Below, in pieces: positions 27,907-46,853 of a DNA stretch of 64,000 nucleotides. A model generated the notes under the pieces. The model made no database searches and was not told the DNA's origin. It saw nothing but the letters and a program-made list of their open reading frames with translations. Source of the DNA: a virus (taxonomy: Duplodnaviria > Caudoviricetes); IMG/VR virus record IMGVR_UViG_3300024284_000007, positions 23,380-87,379 of that record; one strand, 5' to 3'. Each line of letters opens with the position of its first letter. Position 1 is the first letter of the stretch. Made by a program: the position numbers and the translations under genes.

Positions 27907-28897
27907 CTAGATCGTGCGCTTGTACGGATGGCAGAGCAGTTCCGCCTCCGTGGTGAGCCCTACGACGTCGCCGCCAGTGCTCTGGGAGTGACCGCCGATG
28001 TCGTGGATGGTGGTCGTGGTGGCACCCCTGGTCAGCGCCTCGGCGGTGGCGAAGTGGATGCACGCCTGCTCAATACTGGCGGGCAGGGTGGTGATGATCG
28101 TGCCCGCCACGTGCGGGTAGACCAGCGGCGCGGACAGGCTCAGGGTCCCCGGTCCCGCCGCCGCCGACGCGGAGTTCGCGTGGACGGTCTCCTGCTGTCC
28201 GGAGTCCTTGATCACCCCGGTAGCCCCCGTGGTGCCCTGGTAGCTGGTGATGCCCCAGCCGGTGACGTCGCTGACGGACAGGGTGGTCGCGCCAGCGAGA
28301 GCGCTGGAGGTGATCTCCGCGTGCGGGAAGCCGTTGATGTAGCTCACCTGGATGACATAGCCGTTGCGCCCGAAGCACCAGTTGATGAATCCCGGTCCGA
28401 TGATGATCGCCTGCCCGCCGTAGGCGTCGGTGGCAGGCGCGACCGAGTTGAAGATCCCGAACGGGGGGTACTCCGGCTCCGCCCATCCCGTGGGCAAGGT
28501 GGTCCACTGCCGGGGCCACGTGTTGTTGGGGCACACCTGGACCTGGGTGACTTCCAGGATGGGGAAGCGGGAGAGGATAGCCCTGGCATTGGACCCGGTA
28601 TTGTTCCAGTAGGGCGTGCGGGTCGCTCCGCCTGCGCCCGGTCCGACCGTCACCCGGAAATCCGGACCCCGGAGCACCTCGATATCGACGGTGGCTCTCA
28701 GGATCTGGTTGCAATAGCTATCGACCTTGGCAGTGGCTCTCGCGCACATGTTCCACCACTCGGCTTCGTTCTGCGCGGGAGTGATGTCATCTCCTACGGG
28801 AATGCTGGTCCAGTCCTAAATCGATACCCGTAGGAGCAGTCAGGAGCGTCACCGGGGAAATGTACGGTGCTGTGATCAGCGGCATCGGGGTAGTCAT
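27907..28897 (-). CDS. Head-tail adaptor; frame interrupted by a 7-nt insert TTAGGAC (28813-28819)
   Basis: N-part MTTPMPLITAPYISPVTLLTAPTGID starts at an ATGA overlap; the C-part frame continues WTSIPVGDD...MCARATAKV. Confidence 0.75.
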
Positions 28898-30968: not shown

Positions 30969-31250
30969 CTATGTGCTGATGATGTAGCTGACGGTCGCGG
31001 TCTGCCCGTTCTGGGTGACGCAGAAATTCAGCCCGCCGCCCTTGGAGATCGCAGTGGTCACGAACGACGTGGGAAGCGCATTAGGCGTCAGCAGGAACCC
31101 CGTGGAGGAGGTGACTCCCGTGGCGGGTCCTACCGCCACGGTCGCGGGACCGATGTTCGCCAGGACGATGCTGCACAGTCCGGCAGGGACGGTGCACAGA
31201 GCTGTGGGGACAGTGTTGTCATAGGACAGCTGCCCGGTGATGATGCTCAT
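30969..31250 (-). CDS. Small beta-rich putative virion decoration protein (paralog family)
   Basis: Shares the V-x-G...VT...G motif with its neighbours. Confidence 0.65.
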   Translation of the reverse strand: MSIITGQLSYDNTVPTALCTVPAGLCSIVLANIGPATVAVGPATGVTSSTGFLLTPNALPTSFVTTAISKGGGLNFCVTQNGQTATVSYIIST

Positions 31251-31828
31251 CAGTTCCCGGTAGAGATAATGAAGCAGAATGACGATGCGGTGCCGTTGCC
31301 GGTCGTGGCGTAGTACGTAGCCCCGCCGACCGAGTTGTAGGCTTCCTGGCTGAGCGGGGTCACCGGGACCGGCATGCCGCTCGCGGCGGTGACCCTCGCC
31401 GATGTCCCGAGGTAGACCGCCTGGGGGGTGGTCGGCTGGTAGAGGGTGAAGTTGCTCAGCCCGGCGGGGAGGATGAATACAGTAACCGTGCTGTTAGCAG
31501 GCACCGTTGCCGTTCCCATGATCACGGACATGATTTTTCTCTGTAACGCCGTAGCAACATAAGTAACTGTCGTACTATTGCCCGTAGCTGCAATGGCATA
31601 CAGGTCCTGTCCGGGATGCAGGTGCACCTGAAATCCGTAAGGAGTAATAGTGCTATACGGATTCCCCTGGAAGAACCCCGTTGATGATGTGACGCCGGAG
31701 TCACCAAAATAGATTGCACATTGCGCGTACAGTGCACTTACTGTAACTTCGGTGATGTGTTCAGAATCTGCGGCGACAATCAAGGCAGGAGCAGAATCCG
31801 TTATACTTACCTGACCATAAGAAAACAT
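31250..31828 (-). CDS. Two tandem paralogous decoration-like units joined through an in-frame TTA
   Basis: Unit 1 is AT-rich (aa 1-94), TTA is codon 95, unit 2 starts MSVIMGT. Confidence 0.6.
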   Translation of the reverse strand: MFSYGQVSITDSAPALIVAADSEHITEVTVSALYAQCAIYFGDSGVTSSTGFFQGNPYSTITPYGFQVHLHPGQDLYAIAATGNSTTVTYVATALQRKIMSVIMGTATVPANSTVTVFILPAGLSNFTLYQPTTPQAVYLGTSARVTAASGMPVPVTPLSQEAYNSVGGATYYATTGNGTASSFCFIISTGN

Positions 31829-31834
31829 GATCCC

Positions 31835-32122
31835 TCACTGATCAGTGACGATGATGTAATTAACGAGTCCAGTGGTTCCGGATGTATTTGCCCCGTAAAG
31901 CGTAGCTCCTCGGGAGGAGACATAGCTTGAAAAGCTTGTGGGAATCGAGTGGCATTGCAATCCGTTCAGCCCGGTCACCGCTGTACTCGTCCCGACTGAT
32001 ACGACATTCGTAGCAGAAGTTGACGAGTTCCAGAACGTGGCATTGCACAACCCGGGAGGAACAGTGAAGAGAGCGATCGTGGATGCGTTCGGCACCGTGA
32101 TCTGCCCCATGACGTAGGTCAT
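31835..32122 (-). CDS. Small beta-rich putative decoration protein (paralog family)
   Basis: VSVGTSTAVTGLNG motif. Confidence 0.65.
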   Translation of the reverse strand: MTYVMGQITVPNASTIALFTVPPGLCNATFWNSSTSATNVVSVGTSTAVTGLNGLQCHSIPTSFSSYVSSRGATLYGANTSGTTGLVNYIIVTDQ

Positions 32123-41087: not shown

Positions 41088-41258
41088 TTACCTGCGGTTA
41101 AGCCTGCGGGAAACCCATCTGTCTTTCACGACCATCACGTAACCGGCGTCAGTAAAGACGATCCCGTGGCGCAGCCTCGGGTTGATCCCGGCTTTCTCGC
41201 AGGCATTCAGCGCCACCGCGAGATCATGGAGAAGGAGCCTTTTCCGCTTCTTACTGAT
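41088..41258 (-). CDS. 56-aa basic ORF with an apparent ATC start
   Basis: AAGGAG-7 nt-ATC AGT AAG AAG..., overlapping the upstream stop; GC3-biased. Confidence 0.35.
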   Translation of the reverse strand: MSKKRKRLLLHDLAVALNACEKAGINPRLRHGIVFTDAGYVMVVKDRWVSRRLNRR

Positions 41259-41558
41259 GGTGGGACTCCTTCAGCCTCTCCCATTCGGCGAGGGCGGCGC
41301 GCGAGGCCGCGATCACCTCGGGGTGGACTTTCCCCTTGCCTTTCGCCCATCGCCGGGTGGCATTGACCGCCGTGGCGATGGCAGCGGACTCGCTCATCCC
41401 GTTCCGCATGAGGGCATGCGCGATGTTTTCGATGTTAAGTAGCTCGGAAGCTTCTGCTTCTCTGGAACCTTCTTGGATGGCGTATGCCACAATCCGTGCG
41501 TTCCAAGAGGATTGGGCGTTGACGCCAGTTCTGGAGTCTTAGCTGACTTTCCGACCAT
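41251..41558 (-). CDS. Capsid-morphogenesis-associated small protein; frame interrupted by a 5-nt insert TTAAC (41434-41438)
   Basis: GGAGGT RBS and ATG41558 give ...PLGTHGLWHTP...KLPSY; the second frame continues IENIAHALMRNG...AIATAVNATRRWAKG...AEWERLK. Confidence 0.7.
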
Positions 41559-41594
41559 TTTACATCACCTCCATTCCCCTGCTACATTAGATCT

Positions 41595-42263: not shown

Positions 42264-42357
42264 TGTACGCCCAGAGACTGGCAAGCCCCCATCCTGTCCG
42301 TTCGGAAATAATATCCGCTTCGCGGATCAGGTAATACCAGTCAAGGTGCCGCTTCAC
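42085..42357 (-). CDS. Hypothetical protein
   Basis: ATGA-type overlap with the portal stop. Confidence 0.5.
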   Translation of the reverse strand: MKRHLDWYYLIREADIISERTGWGLASLWAYINHDDYDGALRKLRDLLEQKIPLKDGSRQVMRHEAEYRLWKKRSGLDSPPSAEVGLDHP

Positions 42358-45300
42358 AGGACTACCCCAGCTCCGTAGACCTGACCGGGCTGCGTTACGG
42401 CTGTTCCCGCTTCCTCGAACTTGAGATGAACTTGCTCTACTTCAGGTCGAGGCTCCCAGTATTTGCAAACCCCTTCGGGAGCTATCTCACCAGCGACGAG
42501 ATCGCATGTTCCATCGTGAAACATAACGCAGTTTCCGCAACGATGATCACCTGTGGCAACGCGATAATCAGCGCTCCACTGTGATACTTTTGGGCGATTT
42601 ACCGACTTATTTCCGGGATCAGAGCCCTGGTGAATCTGCTTGGTGTGAGTTTCCAGCGCCGCCATGCGGTCCCGGGGGCTGATGTTGCCCACGTAAGCAA
42701 GGACCGGCTGGTTCAGCTTGTAGTGCCGCGCCAGGGCTCGGTGATGACCGTCCACGATGAACGCCCTGTTGGAATTCGGCTCCTGCACGAGAACGGAAGG
42801 AGAAGTGTTCCCCTCTCCTGACCTGATGCCCTTCGCGAAGCGGTTCACCGCGTCCGGCTGGTGACTTGCCGCCCACTTGTCTTCGTCGTCGGTATCGACG
42901 CGCTCCCAGGGCACATTGACCGGACCGATCCAGCGTGCCCGCTTGACCCACTCGATGGCGTCGTTGGGGAAGTTCTTCTCCAGCTGGGCGTAGACGTGCC
43001 GCCATTCCACGGGATTGGCGTCGGTGACGTGCTGAGCACCCTTCCCGGCGACGACATTGCTTTCTTCCTCCGGATCCCAGTGCTGGACGAAGACGGAAGG
43101 ATCGGCTGTCTCGGGAAGCCCCGGGCGCGGCGTCGCGGGCTTCGGGGTCTTCGGACCGGGAGTGCTGACCACCGGATGCGGGGCGACCTTAGGGGATCCT
43201 ACCGAGATGGCTCCCGGTCCGGGATCGCTGCCGATTCCCCCTTCAGGCCATTTGTCCTGCTCTTCCTCTCCCTGATCGGGGAACCTGCTCGCAGGACGGT
43301 TGCGTACACGCCGTTTCGGGTATTCATCATCGGAGGAGCCTCTCGGGTAGAGATGCGCGCCAGCCGAGTCAGCGTGATCCGGATCGCTTCTCGGAGGCTC
43401 CCCGCCAGCCGAAGGTCCCGGGACAGCCCCAGGTCCCGCGTCAGGCCACTCAGCACCGCCCCGCTGGGGATAAGGCCACCTGGAGCCCAGTCCCGCGCCG
43501 TGGCGGTCGGGGTCATCGATGGTGATCTGCTGCCCGGTCTCGGTGACCATGTTCTGCAGGACCTTAAGCGACTGGTCTTTCAGTGCCTGCTCAAGATGCG
43601 GGGTCTCCGGTCCGTCCCAGTCATCGCGGAACTTCGGGGAGAGATCAAGATCGCTGATCTCCTTGCGGCGGAACCAGCCTGTCCCTGCGGTCTCCTCGGG
43701 GGTGCTGCCGTTCATGGCGGGAGTGAACATCGCGGGCGATTCGCACAGGTACAGGTAAGCCAGCTTGCCGTCTTCTTCGAGGTGCGTGAAGTCCCTTATG
43801 ATATTGAGAGCCGGGATCTCGCCGATTTCCTCGGTGGTCTCGCGGAATGCGGCGGTCATTCCCTCCTCGCCGACATGGGCGGTTCCGCCGGGCATTCCCC
43901 AGGTCCCGTCATCGCGCTGCTGGAGGAGGTAGCGCCATTTCCCGTCATCATCTCTTGCGCGGATCAGCAGCCAGGCGACGCGGGATTCGTCTTCGCTCTT
44001 ATGCGCCTGCGGCGGCATGGCGTCGGTTCCGGCGGGAAGGGGGACGCACCGGCAGTTCGGGTGACAGGGACCGGAGAGACCGCCGTGGGAAAACGAGGCG
44101 TCCAGGGGGATAACCCCGTCAGAGGAGGCGTCCTTGCAGATATCGCAGGCGTCGTCGGGGGCTATGGCGAGATGCTTGTGACTGACCCCGTTATCGCGGT
44201 AGCACTGCATCGCGCCGTCGTTCATGGCTCGGGCTACCTCAGTCCTGGCGATGATCTCGCTGCGGGCATTGGAGTTCCCCAGCCCGGTCCGGGAGACCTG
44301 CTCCAGCCAGTGAGCGCCCTCGGTGTTCAGGAAGTCCTGAAGGTGATCTCCGTAATCCCCTGCGCTTTTCCCGAGAAGTTCTCCGGCGGAATCATACCCG
44401 AGCTTCCACGCCTTGGTCCACATAGGGGTCATCGCCGCGAGGAAAGTCTCTTTCGTGGCGTCGGAGATGAGCCCGTGGAGAGTCCCCACGGAGACGTACA
44501 TCTTCCCCGAGGCGGCATCCTTGCGGATCTGCGAGCCCTTGATCTCGGCGTCCTGGAATGCCTGGCTGATTTCCTCTTTGTAATGCCCGACGAGACCGAG
44601 GTCCTGCTGCCAGCCGGGGAACTGAGAGGAAGACTTCACGGCTGCCGCGATAAGCTCAGGGGCTTCCGAGAAAGGGACAGGTCCTTGCAAATAGCCGCTG
44701 ACCGGCGTCATGTCCACCCACGGTGAGAGATCAAGCTGGTCAGTGATGCTCTCGGATTTTGCCTCGATGTCCATCGCCCGCCCGATGGCGGTATCCAGCA
44801 GCACGCCCTTCGCGATATCCTCCGCGATCCTGGCGAGGGTGCCGTTGGTGATGTTCACCGGCTCCCAGGAAGTGATCTCCCTGCCCTTCCTGAGGTGCCT
44901 TCTCAGCGCGTCCAGCTCGGAAGCTGCCGCTGCCTTGTTGCGGATCCGGTTCTGAGTGGGAGCGAGTCCCTGCCCTCTCTTGCGGGAGCCGTTGTTGCCA
45001 GTTCTTCCGGTACCTCCGGTAGAACCCCGCTGGGGGCGCAGGGTCCTGGTAGCCCCCTGTGCCGCCGCGTGCTGGGGAGTGGAGGAAGGATCGGGTCGCG
45101 AGGGGGAGACCGGGGCGGAATGGGTGCCGTTCGGCTTGGTGGCGGACGTGCCCTTCTTCGGCTTGGCGGGACTCTTCTTCCCGGAGGAGGAGCTTCCCTG
45201 ATTCTGCCCCTGGGTAAGCATCGCCTGGATGAGCTTGGGTGCTTCGGAGAACGGGATGGGTCCGTTCTGGGTCATCACGATCGGCTCGGAGGTCTCCTGC

Positions 45301-46853
45301 AGTCCCCACGGGGGCATGTCCAGCCGGTCCCGGACCTCATCGATGGAGGCAACGCCGTTCTGGATCTGCTCGACGCCGAGAGAGGTAATCGCCTGCTTGT
45401 CCTGGTCGTTGACCAGCCCCTCGAACTCGAACTGCATGTCCGGCTGGTCGCAGATGTCCCGGAGGATGTGATTGAAGATGTCCGCGATCCACTTGAGCAA
45501 GGGCAAGGTGGACTTGCGGGACTTCACGTCACGGGCTTCCTCGCCGGAGAACCTCACCCCGGAGGCGGAAGGGCCGGTGGGAGTCCCCCCGATGTCGGGG
45601 ATGATGCCCAGTTCCGAGGGCTGCACGTCGAATGCCATGCAGACCTGGTTCATGACGAGATAGTCGAAAGAATCGCTCAGGTCAACCGGGCGCTGCGGCT
45701 CTACCTTACTTCCGGGAGGCAGCACGACGACCTTCAGGTGATATGCCGGATCACCTGCGAGGGCATTGAGGGCATTCTGCAGCTCGCCGATCTGAGTAGG
45801 TGTTATATTACTATCGCCCGGCGATATGTAAACGGCGGGAACCGTTCCTTCAGTGAAATAGTCGAGCTGGAATTCCTGCTTCTGCAGACCGCTGATGATA
45901 GGCAGCAGCGCCCTTTCAACCGGGGGGAACCCGTAGGGAGTCTCTCTCGTCGCCCAGTAGGGGGCATAAAGCATGATATCGGAGTTGAAATCATTGACTT
46001 CAGCCCCGGCGAGACCAGCTTCCTCGATATCGGAGCCTGTTGCCAGCGTCATGTAGTCGCTGCGAGGGACTCCGTAAAGAAACTGCTGGTAAGCAGGGGC
46101 AGGGGGTCTCGGGTGCCCTCCGTGGATGTCGATCAGGGGGCGGATCGTAGGTCCGGACACAAGATTGAGCGAGTCCAGGTTGCTGCCGAGGAGTCCTCTT
46201 CCGCCCATTCCGAAGGAAGCGCCGTATTTAGGCCGGAAAATGAGCGCGAGGGCATCATAGACGAAGATTTCCTCAAGGAACGCATTGAGGAAGGTGTCGA
46301 AATTCCAGAAATCCGGGTCAGGACGCCGGAAGAACCTCTTGGCTTTCGCCTTGCGCTCCCCGAAATCCCGCATGGCGCTGCGGTCGCCCTGGTATGCCTT
46401 CGCGGCATCAGTAGTGAGGGTGATATCCCAGCGCAGCCCCCGGATCTCCTCGCAGCGCAGCTCAATGGCAGCCCTGGCGACCGAGTACTTCTGGGCGAGG
46501 GTGCGGAGCTGGTCGAAAGACGCCAGCTTGAGCCCTTCCGACCCGGGAGGAGTCGGGAGGTTCCAGGCATTGCGGTACTGCCACCACCTGGGACCGGGGA
46601 ATGTCCCGCCAGGCGGCGGCTCATCGACCGGCGTCGGCTGGATCGGGGACATCGGGGCGAAAGCCCCGTCAGTGAACACTCTCGGATCGCGGGGAAGAAA
46701 AGGACCGTAAGTGTTGGCGTAGGAGTTGTTGTAGTACATCTCCGCCTGGACCGGGCTGATCCTGCCCATGCCGGAAGCCTGCGGGGCAGCGGTGTAACGC
46801 GCCCCTCCGGGAATGGACTTGATGGCACTGACGATCGCGCCGGGCCGGGTCAA
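42354..46853 (-). CDS. Portal protein fused to MuF, NUDIX, ParB-like and HiPIP-like domains
   Basis: Portal-like N-terminus (YGFPPVERAL, YFTEGTVP, DEVRDRL); IARTEVARA...PCHPNCRC; GGTAHVGE...AAFRETTEEIG; IVDGHHR; CGNC...C...GVCKYW. Confidence 0.85.
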   Translation of the reverse strand: MTRPGAIVSAIKSIPGGARYTAAPQASGMGRISPVQAEMYYNNSYANTYGPFLPRDPRVFTDGAFAPMSPIQPTPVDEPPPGGTFPGPRWWQYRNAWNLPTPPGSEGLKLASFDQLRTLAQKYSVARAAIELRCEEIRGLRWDITLTTDAAKAYQGDRSAMRDFGERKAKAKRFFRRPDPDFWNFDTFLNAFLEEIFVYDALALIFRPKYGASFGMGGRGLLGSNLDSLNLVSGPTIRPLIDIHGGHPRPPAPAYQQFLYGVPRSDYMTLATGSDIEEAGLAGAEVNDFNSDIMLYAPYWATRETPYGFPPVERALLPIISGLQKQEFQLDYFTEGTVPAVYISPGDSNITPTQIGELQNALNALAGDPAYHLKVVVLPPGSKVEPQRPVDLSDSFDYLVMNQVCMAFDVQPSELGIIPDIGGTPTGPSASGVRFSGEEARDVKSRKSTLPLLKWIADIFNHILRDICDQPDMQFEFEGLVNDQDKQAITSLGVEQIQNGVASIDEVRDRLDMPPWGLQETSEPIVMTQNGPIPFSEAPKLIQAMLTQGQNQGSSSSGKKSPAKPKKGTSATKPNGTHSAPVSPSRPDPSSTPQHAAAQGATRTLRPQRGSTGGTGRTGNNGSRKRGQGLAPTQNRIRNKAAAASELDALRRHLRKGREITSWEPVNITNGTLARIAEDIAKGVLLDTAIGRAMDIEAKSESITDQLDLSPWVDMTPVSGYLQGPVPFSEAPELIAAAVKSSSQFPGWQQDLGLVGHYKEEISQAFQDAEIKGSQIRKDAASGKMYVSVGTLHGLISDATKETFLAAMTPMWTKAWKLGYDSAGELLGKSAGDYGDHLQDFLNTEGAHWLEQVSRTGLGNSNARSEIIARTEVARAMNDGAMQCYRDNGVSHKHLAIAPDDACDICKDASSDGVIPLDASFSHGGLSGPCHPNCRCVPLPAGTDAMPPQAHKSEDESRVAWLLIRARDDDGKWRYLLQQRDDGTWGMPGGTAHVGEEGMTAAFRETTEEIGEIPALNIIRDFTHLEEDGKLAYLYLCESPAMFTPAMNGSTPEETAGTGWFRRKEISDLDLSPKFRDDWDGPETPHLEQALKDQSLKVLQNMVTETGQQITIDDPDRHGAGLGSRWPYPQRGGAEWPDAGPGAVPGPSAGGEPPRSDPDHADSAGAHLYPRGSSDDEYPKRRVRNRPASRFPDQGEEEQDKWPEGGIGSDPGPGAISVGSPKVAPHPVVSTPGPKTPKPATPRPGLPETADPSVFVQHWDPEEESNVVAGKGAQHVTDANPVEWRHVYAQLEKNFPNDAIEWVKRARWIGPVNVPWERVDTDDEDKWAASHQPDAVNRFAKGIRSGEGNTSPSVLVQEPNSNRAFIVDGHHRALARHYKLNQPVLAYVGNISPRDRMAALETHTKQIHQGSDPGNKSVNRPKVSQWSADYRVATGDHRCGNCVMFHDGTCDLVAGEIAPEGVCKYWEPRPEVEQVHLKFEEAGTAVTQPGQVYGAGVVL

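Follow-up and report, generated by a model that had tools for sequence, protein, structure and literature searches.

A TTA-led five-nucleotide gap in a small virion-module gene of an uncultured phage, probably crossed by a short ribosome hop and associated with a homing-type endonuclease gene

The stretch of DNA analysed here, referred to as the window, is the right-hand 64 kb (64,000 nucleotides, nt) of an 87,379-bp viral contig, IMG/VR record IMGVR_UViG_3300024284_000007. Its minus strand carries a small gene of about 100 codons, from ATG 41558 to TAA 41251, in which the reading frame breaks after codon 40: five bases, TTAAC, separate a first part ending in ..AAG CTT CCG AGC TAC (KLPSY) from a second part that opens with ATC GAA AAC ATC GCG CAT (Table 1). 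Relative to the frame of part 1 (frame A), part 2 stands in the -1/+2 frame (frame B), and passing from A to B requires a displacement of -1, +2 or +5 nt. The ribosome-binding site, the start at ATG 41558, the KLPSY end, the TTAAC and the frame-B layout had been described in an earlier note made from the letters of the window, and this description proved accurate to the base on re-reading the minus strand. The gene is divergent from an endonuclease gene of the EndoVII family, with 36 nt from ATG to ATG and approximately 160 nt to the gap. A second TTA-led gap, of 7 nt, interrupts a gene labelled head–tail adaptor (hereafter 'adaptor'); roughly 290 nt upstream of it lies a second EndoVII gene, which is inserted between genes that are adjacent in relatives, with an open reading frame (ORF) of about 65 amino acids (aa) of the zinc-ribbon type in between. 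The contig has a GC content of 61%, an estimated completeness of about 71% (CheckV) and 35 tRNA genes.

Table 1. Features of the small gene, of the sibling gap and of the associated nuclease genes (positions in the window)
Feature	Position	Strand	Remark
Shine-Dalgarno sequence GGAGGTG	41566..41572	minus	read from the sequence; 7 nt ahead of ATG 41558
Small gene, part 1, ATG to TAC, 40 codons, MVGKS..GLWHTPSKKVPEKQKLPSY	41439..41558	minus	collinear with the N halves of intact homologues
Proposed take-off codon TAC (last codon of part 1)	41441-41439	minus	
5-nt coding gap TTAAC	41434..41438	minus	missing in ~70 intact homologues; same in L053 and L084
In-frame TTA of the gap	41438-41436	minus	
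Proposed landing triplet AAC	41436-41434	minus	overlaps the TTA
Small gene, part 2, ATC GAA AAC ATC .. CAG TAA, IENIAHALMRNG..ESHHQ*	41251..41433	minus	predicted three-helix-bundle domain
Frame-A stop TGA	41396-41394	minus	would end a 54-aa truncated product if TTA is decoded normally
Frame-B stop TAA	41253-41251	minus	
Free-standing EndoVII-family homing-type endonuclease gene, 222 aa	41595..42263	plus	Pfam PF02945, E=4e-16; PHROG endonuclease VII
Second EndoVII-family gene, 128 aa	29105..29491	minus	only other one in the 87-kb contig
Sibling gap TTAGGAC	28813..28819	minus	gene labelled head-tail adaptor, ATG 28897, stop 27907
Sibling take-off GAT; landing GAC (proposed)	28820-28822; 28813-28815	minus	reading would resume at TGG

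The relatives of the small gene define the join between its two parts to the base. Twenty closer homologues from a large protein collection (metagenomic), 86–112 aa long and 63–90% identical, are all single ORFs and read ..GLWHTPSKKVPEKQQLPAY[IHLV][QE]NIAHALMRNG.., with QQLPAY before the variable residue. An alignment-based scan of IMG/VR yielded 50 loci, 47 of them intact, and when the intact loci were aligned to the junction by translated search (tblastn), the match to the N part stopped one base before the match to the C part started. The length of the junction is fixed in about 70 intact homologues of 96–104 aa, the sole exception being locus L005, which has 12 extra in-frame nt, and only the exact removal of TTAAC restores LPxY-[IHLV]xNIA. 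The start of gp8 of Streptomyces phage LazerLemon reads ..LPGYIREIARALMRNG.., and the domain found there matches part 2 (..ELPGYIREIARALMRNG..); Microbacterium phages Rasputia and Leaf carry ..LPKYIRNIADALMK.., in Rasputia with the domain inside a 1,282-aa 'capsid maturation protease'. The motif LPxYIxxIAxAL, which the earlier note had matched to actinophage head-morphogenesis proteins, is therefore real, since it is present in these three phages, and the joined protein that it had proposed agrees with the intact relatives, where one ORF crosses the KLPSY junction and the N and C parts are not separate genes.

Judging from these alignments, the product of the small gene is most likely a single protein of about 100 aa with a conserved domain of unknown function, a domain that occurs alone or inside large actinophage head-morphogenesis polyproteins. 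Pfam, PHROGs, sequence profiles of the PDB and a BFVD fold search gave no named family for it; the sole matches were to the same domain within proteins of 1,187 and 1,282 aa. The AlphaFold model of an intact homologue (predicted local distance difference test, pLDDT, 72) is a three-helix bundle that has the junction within the first turn of its helix 1. The small gene sits between the portal/MuF and protease–scaffold genes in all relatives. By itself, the 41-aa N part had no phage homologue by tblastn. A DNA search of a phage collection with 700 nt of the locus returned zero matches and a protein search of that collection with the capsid gene remote matches only; hence the collection holds no close cultured relative of this phage.

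Searching relatives for TTA inserts at the same site revealed them in three other uncultured phages, TTAAC twice and TTAAAGGC once, always at the same codon. Locus L053 (IMG/VR) reads GCT TAT-TTAAC-ATC CAG AAC; locus L084, from a DNA-pattern scan of Joint Genome Institute (JGI) metagenome contigs, reads AAC TAC-TTAAC-ATT GAG CAC where its intact relative L086 has AAC TAT ATC GAG CAC; and locus L054 (IMG/VR) reads CCG GAC-TTAAAGGC-TAT ATT GAG, with an insert of 8 nt. The proteins of the three loci are 64–69% identical to the C part of the window. When the window is compared with L053, synonymous sites prove nearly saturated (proportion of synonymous differences, pS, 0.67–0.75), yet the inserted five bases are identical. 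The ratio of non-synonymous to synonymous substitution rates (dN/dS) amounts to 0.20 in the N halves and 0.05 in the C halves: both halves of the gene are under purifying selection. In L053 and L054, no ATG, GTG or TTG follows the upstream stop before the conserved motif is reached, so the C half cannot be a separate gene there, and we rejected a split-gene reading on this ground. A maximum-likelihood tree puts the four broken alleles in separate places, each beside intact alleles; L042 is the partner of L054, and L032/L040 that of L084, and both groupings carry starred support. From this comparison, the frame break is neither an assembly error nor the mark of a decaying gene.

A fifth allele, that of L005, has a 12-nt in-frame TTA-headed insert one codon later (TAC ATT-TTAGGCCGCTTC-CAG), which may add four residues to the protein or be crossed by a hop (AUU to UUC). 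It occupies positions 336–347 of L005, a Logan contig (SRR28285680), where an HNH gene lies about 0.4 kb past the end of the small gene.

The codon that heads these inserts is avoided throughout the phage. Across 31 genes of the contig taken as confident, 12,885 codons in all, TTA stands in frame twice, against 41 and 60 times in the off frames, and both in-frame cases are doubtful, one lying ahead of the likely true start and the other within a dubious ORF; the five largest structural genes have zero. Among six related genomes, TTA is the rarest sense codon in five and is absent in frame from the sixth. The 35 tRNAs of the contig cover the rare A/U-ending codons AUA, AGA, UUG, AAA, CAA, GGA and GUA, and a check for tRNA-Leu(UAA) that extended beyond the window found none among them, the leucine anticodons of this contig (about 71% complete) being only CAA, GAG and CAG; a 135-kb relative has the same leucine set, with no Leu-UAA. 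An all-against-all translated comparison of six genomes retained five homology-supported frame breaks, affecting the small gene of three genomes and the 'adaptor' gene of two, and all five start with an in-frame TTA; the other candidates of this tblastn comparison were rejected as gene boundaries or antisense shadow ORFs. These counts bear out the argument, made from the window alone, that two breaks opening with so rare an in-frame codon are not random, and they exclude chance as the source of the TTA-led breaks. A homology-free signature scan (TTA, a gap of 4–14 nt, a synonymous landing codon and an open frame downstream) picked out 2.3% of all TTA trinucleotides and 1.6–4.2% of control trinucleotides, without enrichment, so that it cannot discover sites in these high-GC genomes. 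A stricter ORF-based scan returned ordinary gene boundaries only, and a comparison of about 55 related loci showed no frame break within the protease/scaffold gene, the C-terminal end of the portal gene or a 42-aa ORF.

The sibling site, at positions 28822–28810, reads GAT-TTAGGAC-TGG. This second break, already claimed in the earlier note, is real: four intact 'adaptor' homologues (L056/L057, L079 and L082) read ..APTGID-W[GSA]SIP.., with GAC TGG, and the 'adaptor' gene of locus L058, 72% identical, carries the identical seven extra bases. Its take-off GAU and landing GAC are synonymous, and UAG opens the +1 frame, so that simple +1 slippage cannot restore the gene. As to structure, a perfect 10-bp inverted repeat (CUCCUACGGG / CCCGUAGGAG) at positions 28791–28836 of the minus strand encloses the sibling gap in a 26-nt loop; L058 has a different hairpin, starting at the take-off codon (z = -2.9), and the structures are not conserved between genomes.

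Both gaps of the contig lie downstream of an EndoVII gene, and the whole contig has exactly two such genes, one upstream of each gap. L053 has an EndoVII gene at the place equivalent to that of the window, 66% identical to it; in L084, a 172-aa HNH-type gene lies directly upstream of the small gene, and L054 retains a shortened homologue (a remnant) of that HNH gene. Among the loci whose upstream sequence spans 800 nt or more, an upstream nuclease gene or remnant was found in 4/4 broken alleles and in 0/48 intact ones, a split expected by chance on the order of 1 in 10^5 (hypergeometric, near-duplicate loci allowed for). In eleven intact alleles, a distantly related EndoVII or HNH gene is instead found between the small gene and the protease gene, downstream of the former; the loci with a downstream nuclease include L014, L015, L021, L024/25, L036, L037/39 and L051, and their flanking genes are without frame break.

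Because exact removal of the insert restores the motif, because it recurs at the same codon, because both halves are under selection and because TTA is avoided and no tRNA-Leu(UAA) is encoded, we favor a reading in which a ribosome stalled at UUA hops 5 nt over the nuclease-linked gap, and we regard it as probable. Peptidyl-tRNA-Tyr would occupy UAC when UUA, a nearly unused codon for which the phage offers no tRNA, enters the A site and causes a stall. The peptidyl-tRNA would then release, the mRNA would slide by 5 nt and the tRNA would re-pair with AAC, which matches UAC at two of three positions, as had been remarked before; reading would restart at AUC to give ..KLPSY-IENIAHAL.. (junction peptide LPSYIENIAHALMR). 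Ribosomes that decode UUA would terminate 13 codons further on. As for the origin of the gap, its co-occurrence with nuclease genes suggests that gap and adjacent homing endonuclease form one cassette: the gap lies within the gene's best-conserved stretch of DNA, the likely cleavage target in phages devoid of the nuclease, so that it would protect the carrier genome and move with the nuclease gene during homing. The earlier note had proposed a shared, TTA-triggered recoding control of head assembly. The first half of that proposal, a TTA-triggered hop of variable length (5 and 7 nt), is supported by the comparative evidence; control as a purpose is not, because the insert adjoins a nuclease gene or its remnant in all four broken alleles of the small gene. 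The same observation points to the insert being a selfish-element mark that would protect the target site of the nuclease, as in the gene 60/mobA system of phage T4. A regulatory role of the gap is possible.

Several points weigh against this reading. For the small gene, the hop itself, its landing triplet and the protective role of the gap are inferred from DNA comparison. AAC is not synonymous with UAC/UAU and would leave a first-position A–A mismatch, unlike the pairs of phage phiHau3, T4 and the sibling site; in L054, landing from GAC on GGC would involve a U–G wobble at the middle position and is not synonymous either. RNA folds at three small-gene sites were no better than those of shuffled sequences (z = -1.4, +0.4 and +0.8), and a conserved internal Shine-Dalgarno sequence was not seen at the small-gene sites. 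The scarcity of tRNA-Leu(UAA) in the host is an assumption; the scan of genome contigs for a host gave a single metagenome-assembled genome labelled Bacillota, from which no host could be inferred. Cutting of the intact site by the nuclease, and hence protection by the gap, is likewise presumed. Lastly, the 'adaptor' gap of L058 has no EndoVII gene within 2.5 kb, the nearest candidate being an HNH-like ORF 1.3 kb away, so the nuclease link is not absolute.

Four other explanations were considered. One dispenses with recoding: the insert would be a selfish hitch-hiker that inactivates or splits a dispensable gene, leaving the 54-aa fragment and perhaps a C fragment started at the frame-B GTG 41490, which is indeed present in the window. 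Homing elements are able to spread costly alleles, and the broken alleles are polyphyletic, so that each could be young. We nevertheless judge this unlikely, since the window and L053 share only 66% identity in their endonucleases and about 65–73% in the flanking small-gene alleles, which makes the cassette old; despite this age, the halves have stayed intact (dN/dS 0.05–0.20), with no second lesion in four genomes. Nor does it sit well with the C halves of L053 and L054, which have no start codon ahead of the conserved motif, with the presence of the small gene, intact, in all of some 50 related loci beside the portal and protease genes, or with the nature of the second gene broken in this manner, which is a large and conserved gene of the virion.

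Programmed frameshifting of -1 (or +2), at the TTA or close to it, yielding LPSY-LN-IENIA (peptide LPSYLNIENIAHALMR) or LPSY-N-IENIA, is quite unlikely. Frame B is the -1 frame of frame A, and rare 'hungry' codons promote frameshifts (review PMC5009743); however, the frame-A codons CUU CCG AGC UAC UUA ACA UCG AAA ACA contain no X_XXY_YYZ heptamer, and the triplets that tRNA-Tyr would meet at -1 (CUA in the window, UUA in L053) and at +2 (CUU) do not allow it to pair again. L005, with its four extra residues at the same place, hints that insertions are perhaps tolerated, but one or two extra residues occur in 0 of about 70 intact homologues and, in the structural model, the break would fall inside the first turn of helix 1 of a folded domain. 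The sibling site is not rescued by a simple +1 slip either, as UAG follows, and the phiHau3 authors rejected frameshifting on like grounds (PMC10732093). The -1 frameshift was thus set aside as the leading interpretation for want of a slippery site and because the extra residues are found in no homologue.

Excision of the 5 nt from the mRNA by cutting and rejoining, or their reading as an extended codon by a tRNA-like gene, is very improbable: no known system excises 5–8 nt from bacterial mRNA, an extended codon would add a residue found in no homologue, and gaps of 5, 7, 8, 10 and 12 nt with differing sequences cannot be one codon. The chance of a sequencing or assembly artefact is negligible, for although the contig was assembled from a metagenome and its 5' end is of low complexity, the insert does not lie in a homopolymer, TTAAC stands at the identical codon in two further independent assemblies of clearly different phages, with the 8-nt insert in a third, and it is very unlikely that an assembly error would have produced one insert in three independent assemblies.

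The low-complexity end of the contig (C1:60–140 of the genome, outside the window) consists of T runs followed by C18 and then G6; it is probably an assembly-end artefact, so that the contig is not a complete genome. In the neighborhood of the small gene, a small basic ORF (..HGIVFTDAGYVMVVKDRW..) follows at positions 41088–41250 of the minus strand and has conserved counterparts in L004 and L084. For the conserved basic stretch at its N terminus, an obvious start codon is lacking in the window ahead of GTG 41216. Ahead of the small gene lies a single ORF of 1,499 aa (42354–46853, minus strand). Its counterpart in L086 is a 1,318-aa product with portal, Mu-F-like and NUDIX parts, next to which an ORF resembles the C end of the 1,499-aa ORF; in L004, the equivalent region consists of three separate genes (883, 342 and 462 aa). 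Elsewhere in the window, an in-frame TTA (31544–31546, minus strand) occurs in the ORF 31250–31828, at the expected end of the first of two tandem paralogues of about 95 aa each (..TVTYVATA-TTA-CAG AGA AAA ATC-ATG..), with no stop before the ATG of the next paralogue; this TTA may be a stop-like signal, or else the two paralogues are fused. A third paralogue is found at 31835–32122, and two relatives (G003 and G005) hold only two copies.

More generally, we entertain the idea, which we would place somewhat short of probable, that in uncultured high-GC soil phages homing endonucleases of at least two families (EndoVII and HNH) spread together with UUA-led 'immunity scars' of 5–12 nt in the most conserved codons of neighboring virion genes, crossed by very short hops that tolerate a mismatched landing. 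If so, UUA in this phage group would be a general 'do not decode' signal (hop or stop) more than a leucine codon, and the published gaps of phiHau3 could perhaps be scars too, rather than growth-phase sensors. Programmed translational bypassing is among the rarest departures from standard decoding, its published natural cases being T4 gene 60 and relatives, the byp elements of yeast mitochondria and three phiHau3-related terminase genes. To these the present locus would add a natural series, four alleles of one gene and a second gene in the same genome, and its gap, the shortest so far (5 nt), together with a near-cognate landing, would bear on the minimal signal for a ribosome hop. The co-occurrence with nuclease genes also suggests why such gaps exist, namely to protect the target of the nuclease itself, a purpose shown only for T4. 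On the practical side, gene callers split or truncate genes of this kind, so that essential virion genes of these phages would be mis-annotated.

The principle of a TTA-led hop, put forward in the earlier note, is not new: it was suggested in 2013, and verified in part in 2023, for UUA-led gaps of 7 and 10 nt in the terminase genes of the Streptomyces phage phiHau3 and two prophages (PMC10732093). The phiHau3 gene has two 10-nt UUA-led gaps, which we read from the record as GGC-TTACTCCGGT-AAG and TCT-TTAACGGTCC-ACG, and the prophage StrepC.1 and a Streptomyces catenulae prophage have gaps of 7 nt; such inserts occur in 3 of 100 terminase genes (PMC10732093). Bypassing when tRNA-Leu(UAA) is unavailable was proposed by Smith et al. 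(J Bacteriol 195:4924, 2013, as cited in PMC5009743), and Antonov et al. (2023) reported the full-length product and, by mass spectrometry, the junction peptide of a UAA-substituted g6/7 construct in Escherichia coli (PMC10732093). The 2023 authors favor regulation, with the gaps acting as a sensor of host growth phase, and homing is mentioned nowhere in their paper (PMC10732093). The small gene resembles the phiHau3 case in that a short, frame-disrupting insert led by an in-frame UUA lies in an essential virion or packaging gene of a high-GC phage, the flanks being contiguous in homologues; in both phages, UUA is otherwise avoided and stalling followed by hopping at UUA is the proposed explanation. 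The sibling gap is closer still, its synonymous pair GAU..GAC recalling GGC..GGU and UCU..UCC of phiHau3. The differences are that the genes here encode a small head-module protein and a large virion protein in an unrelated, uncultured lineage, that the gap of the small gene, at 5 nt, is shorter than any published, with a proposed landing that overlaps the UUA and is near-cognate, and that gaps at this codon occur in four alleles and go together with a homing-endonuclease gene.

The bypass of T4 gene 60 within the mobA element is said to go back to Huang (1988) and Bonocora (2011). Its 50-nt gap is part of mobA, a homing-endonuclease element, and shields the carrier against MobA, and in some T4 relatives the rare codon AGG replaces the stop after the take-off site (Manning and Atkins, bioRxiv 10.1101/2022.08.31.505936). 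Shared with the small gene are a gap in an essential gene beside a free-standing homing endonuclease, a patchy joint distribution and a poorly decodable codon after take-off. The T4 gap is 50 nt long (20 nt in one clade), with a take-off stem–loop, matched GGA codons, an internal Shine-Dalgarno sequence, a nascent-peptide signal and the HNH nuclease MobA, whereas the small-gene locus has 5 nt, no significant structure, an EndoVII nuclease (HNH in L084) and the sense codon UUA after take-off. As far as its sequence tells, the locus is an analogue and not a member of the gene 60 cassette, there being no sequence homology between them. The mitochondrial 'byp' elements of Magnusiomyces capitatus (Lang et al. 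2014, as described in bioRxiv 10.1101/2022.08.31.505936 and PMC5009743) are, like the small-gene gap, numerous short mobile inserts within coding sequences. Unlike it, they are, according to the same two descriptions, 27–55 nt long, resemble GC clusters and reside in an organelle with its own ribosomes, and these accounts give no known endonuclease link for them. Non-programmed short hops of E. coli ribosomes on meeting a stop or 'hungry' codon (Weiss et al. 1987, +5 and +6; Gallant and Lindsley 1998; both as cited in bioRxiv 10.1101/2022.08.31.505936 and PMC10732093) resemble the proposed one in that peptidyl-tRNA moves by a few nucleotides at a slow A-site codon; they are of low efficiency, occur in synthetic or starved systems and are not conserved in natural genes, unlike the gap of the small gene. 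The small-gene locus thus appears to join a UUA gap of the phiHau3 type with the genomic logic of T4 gene 60.

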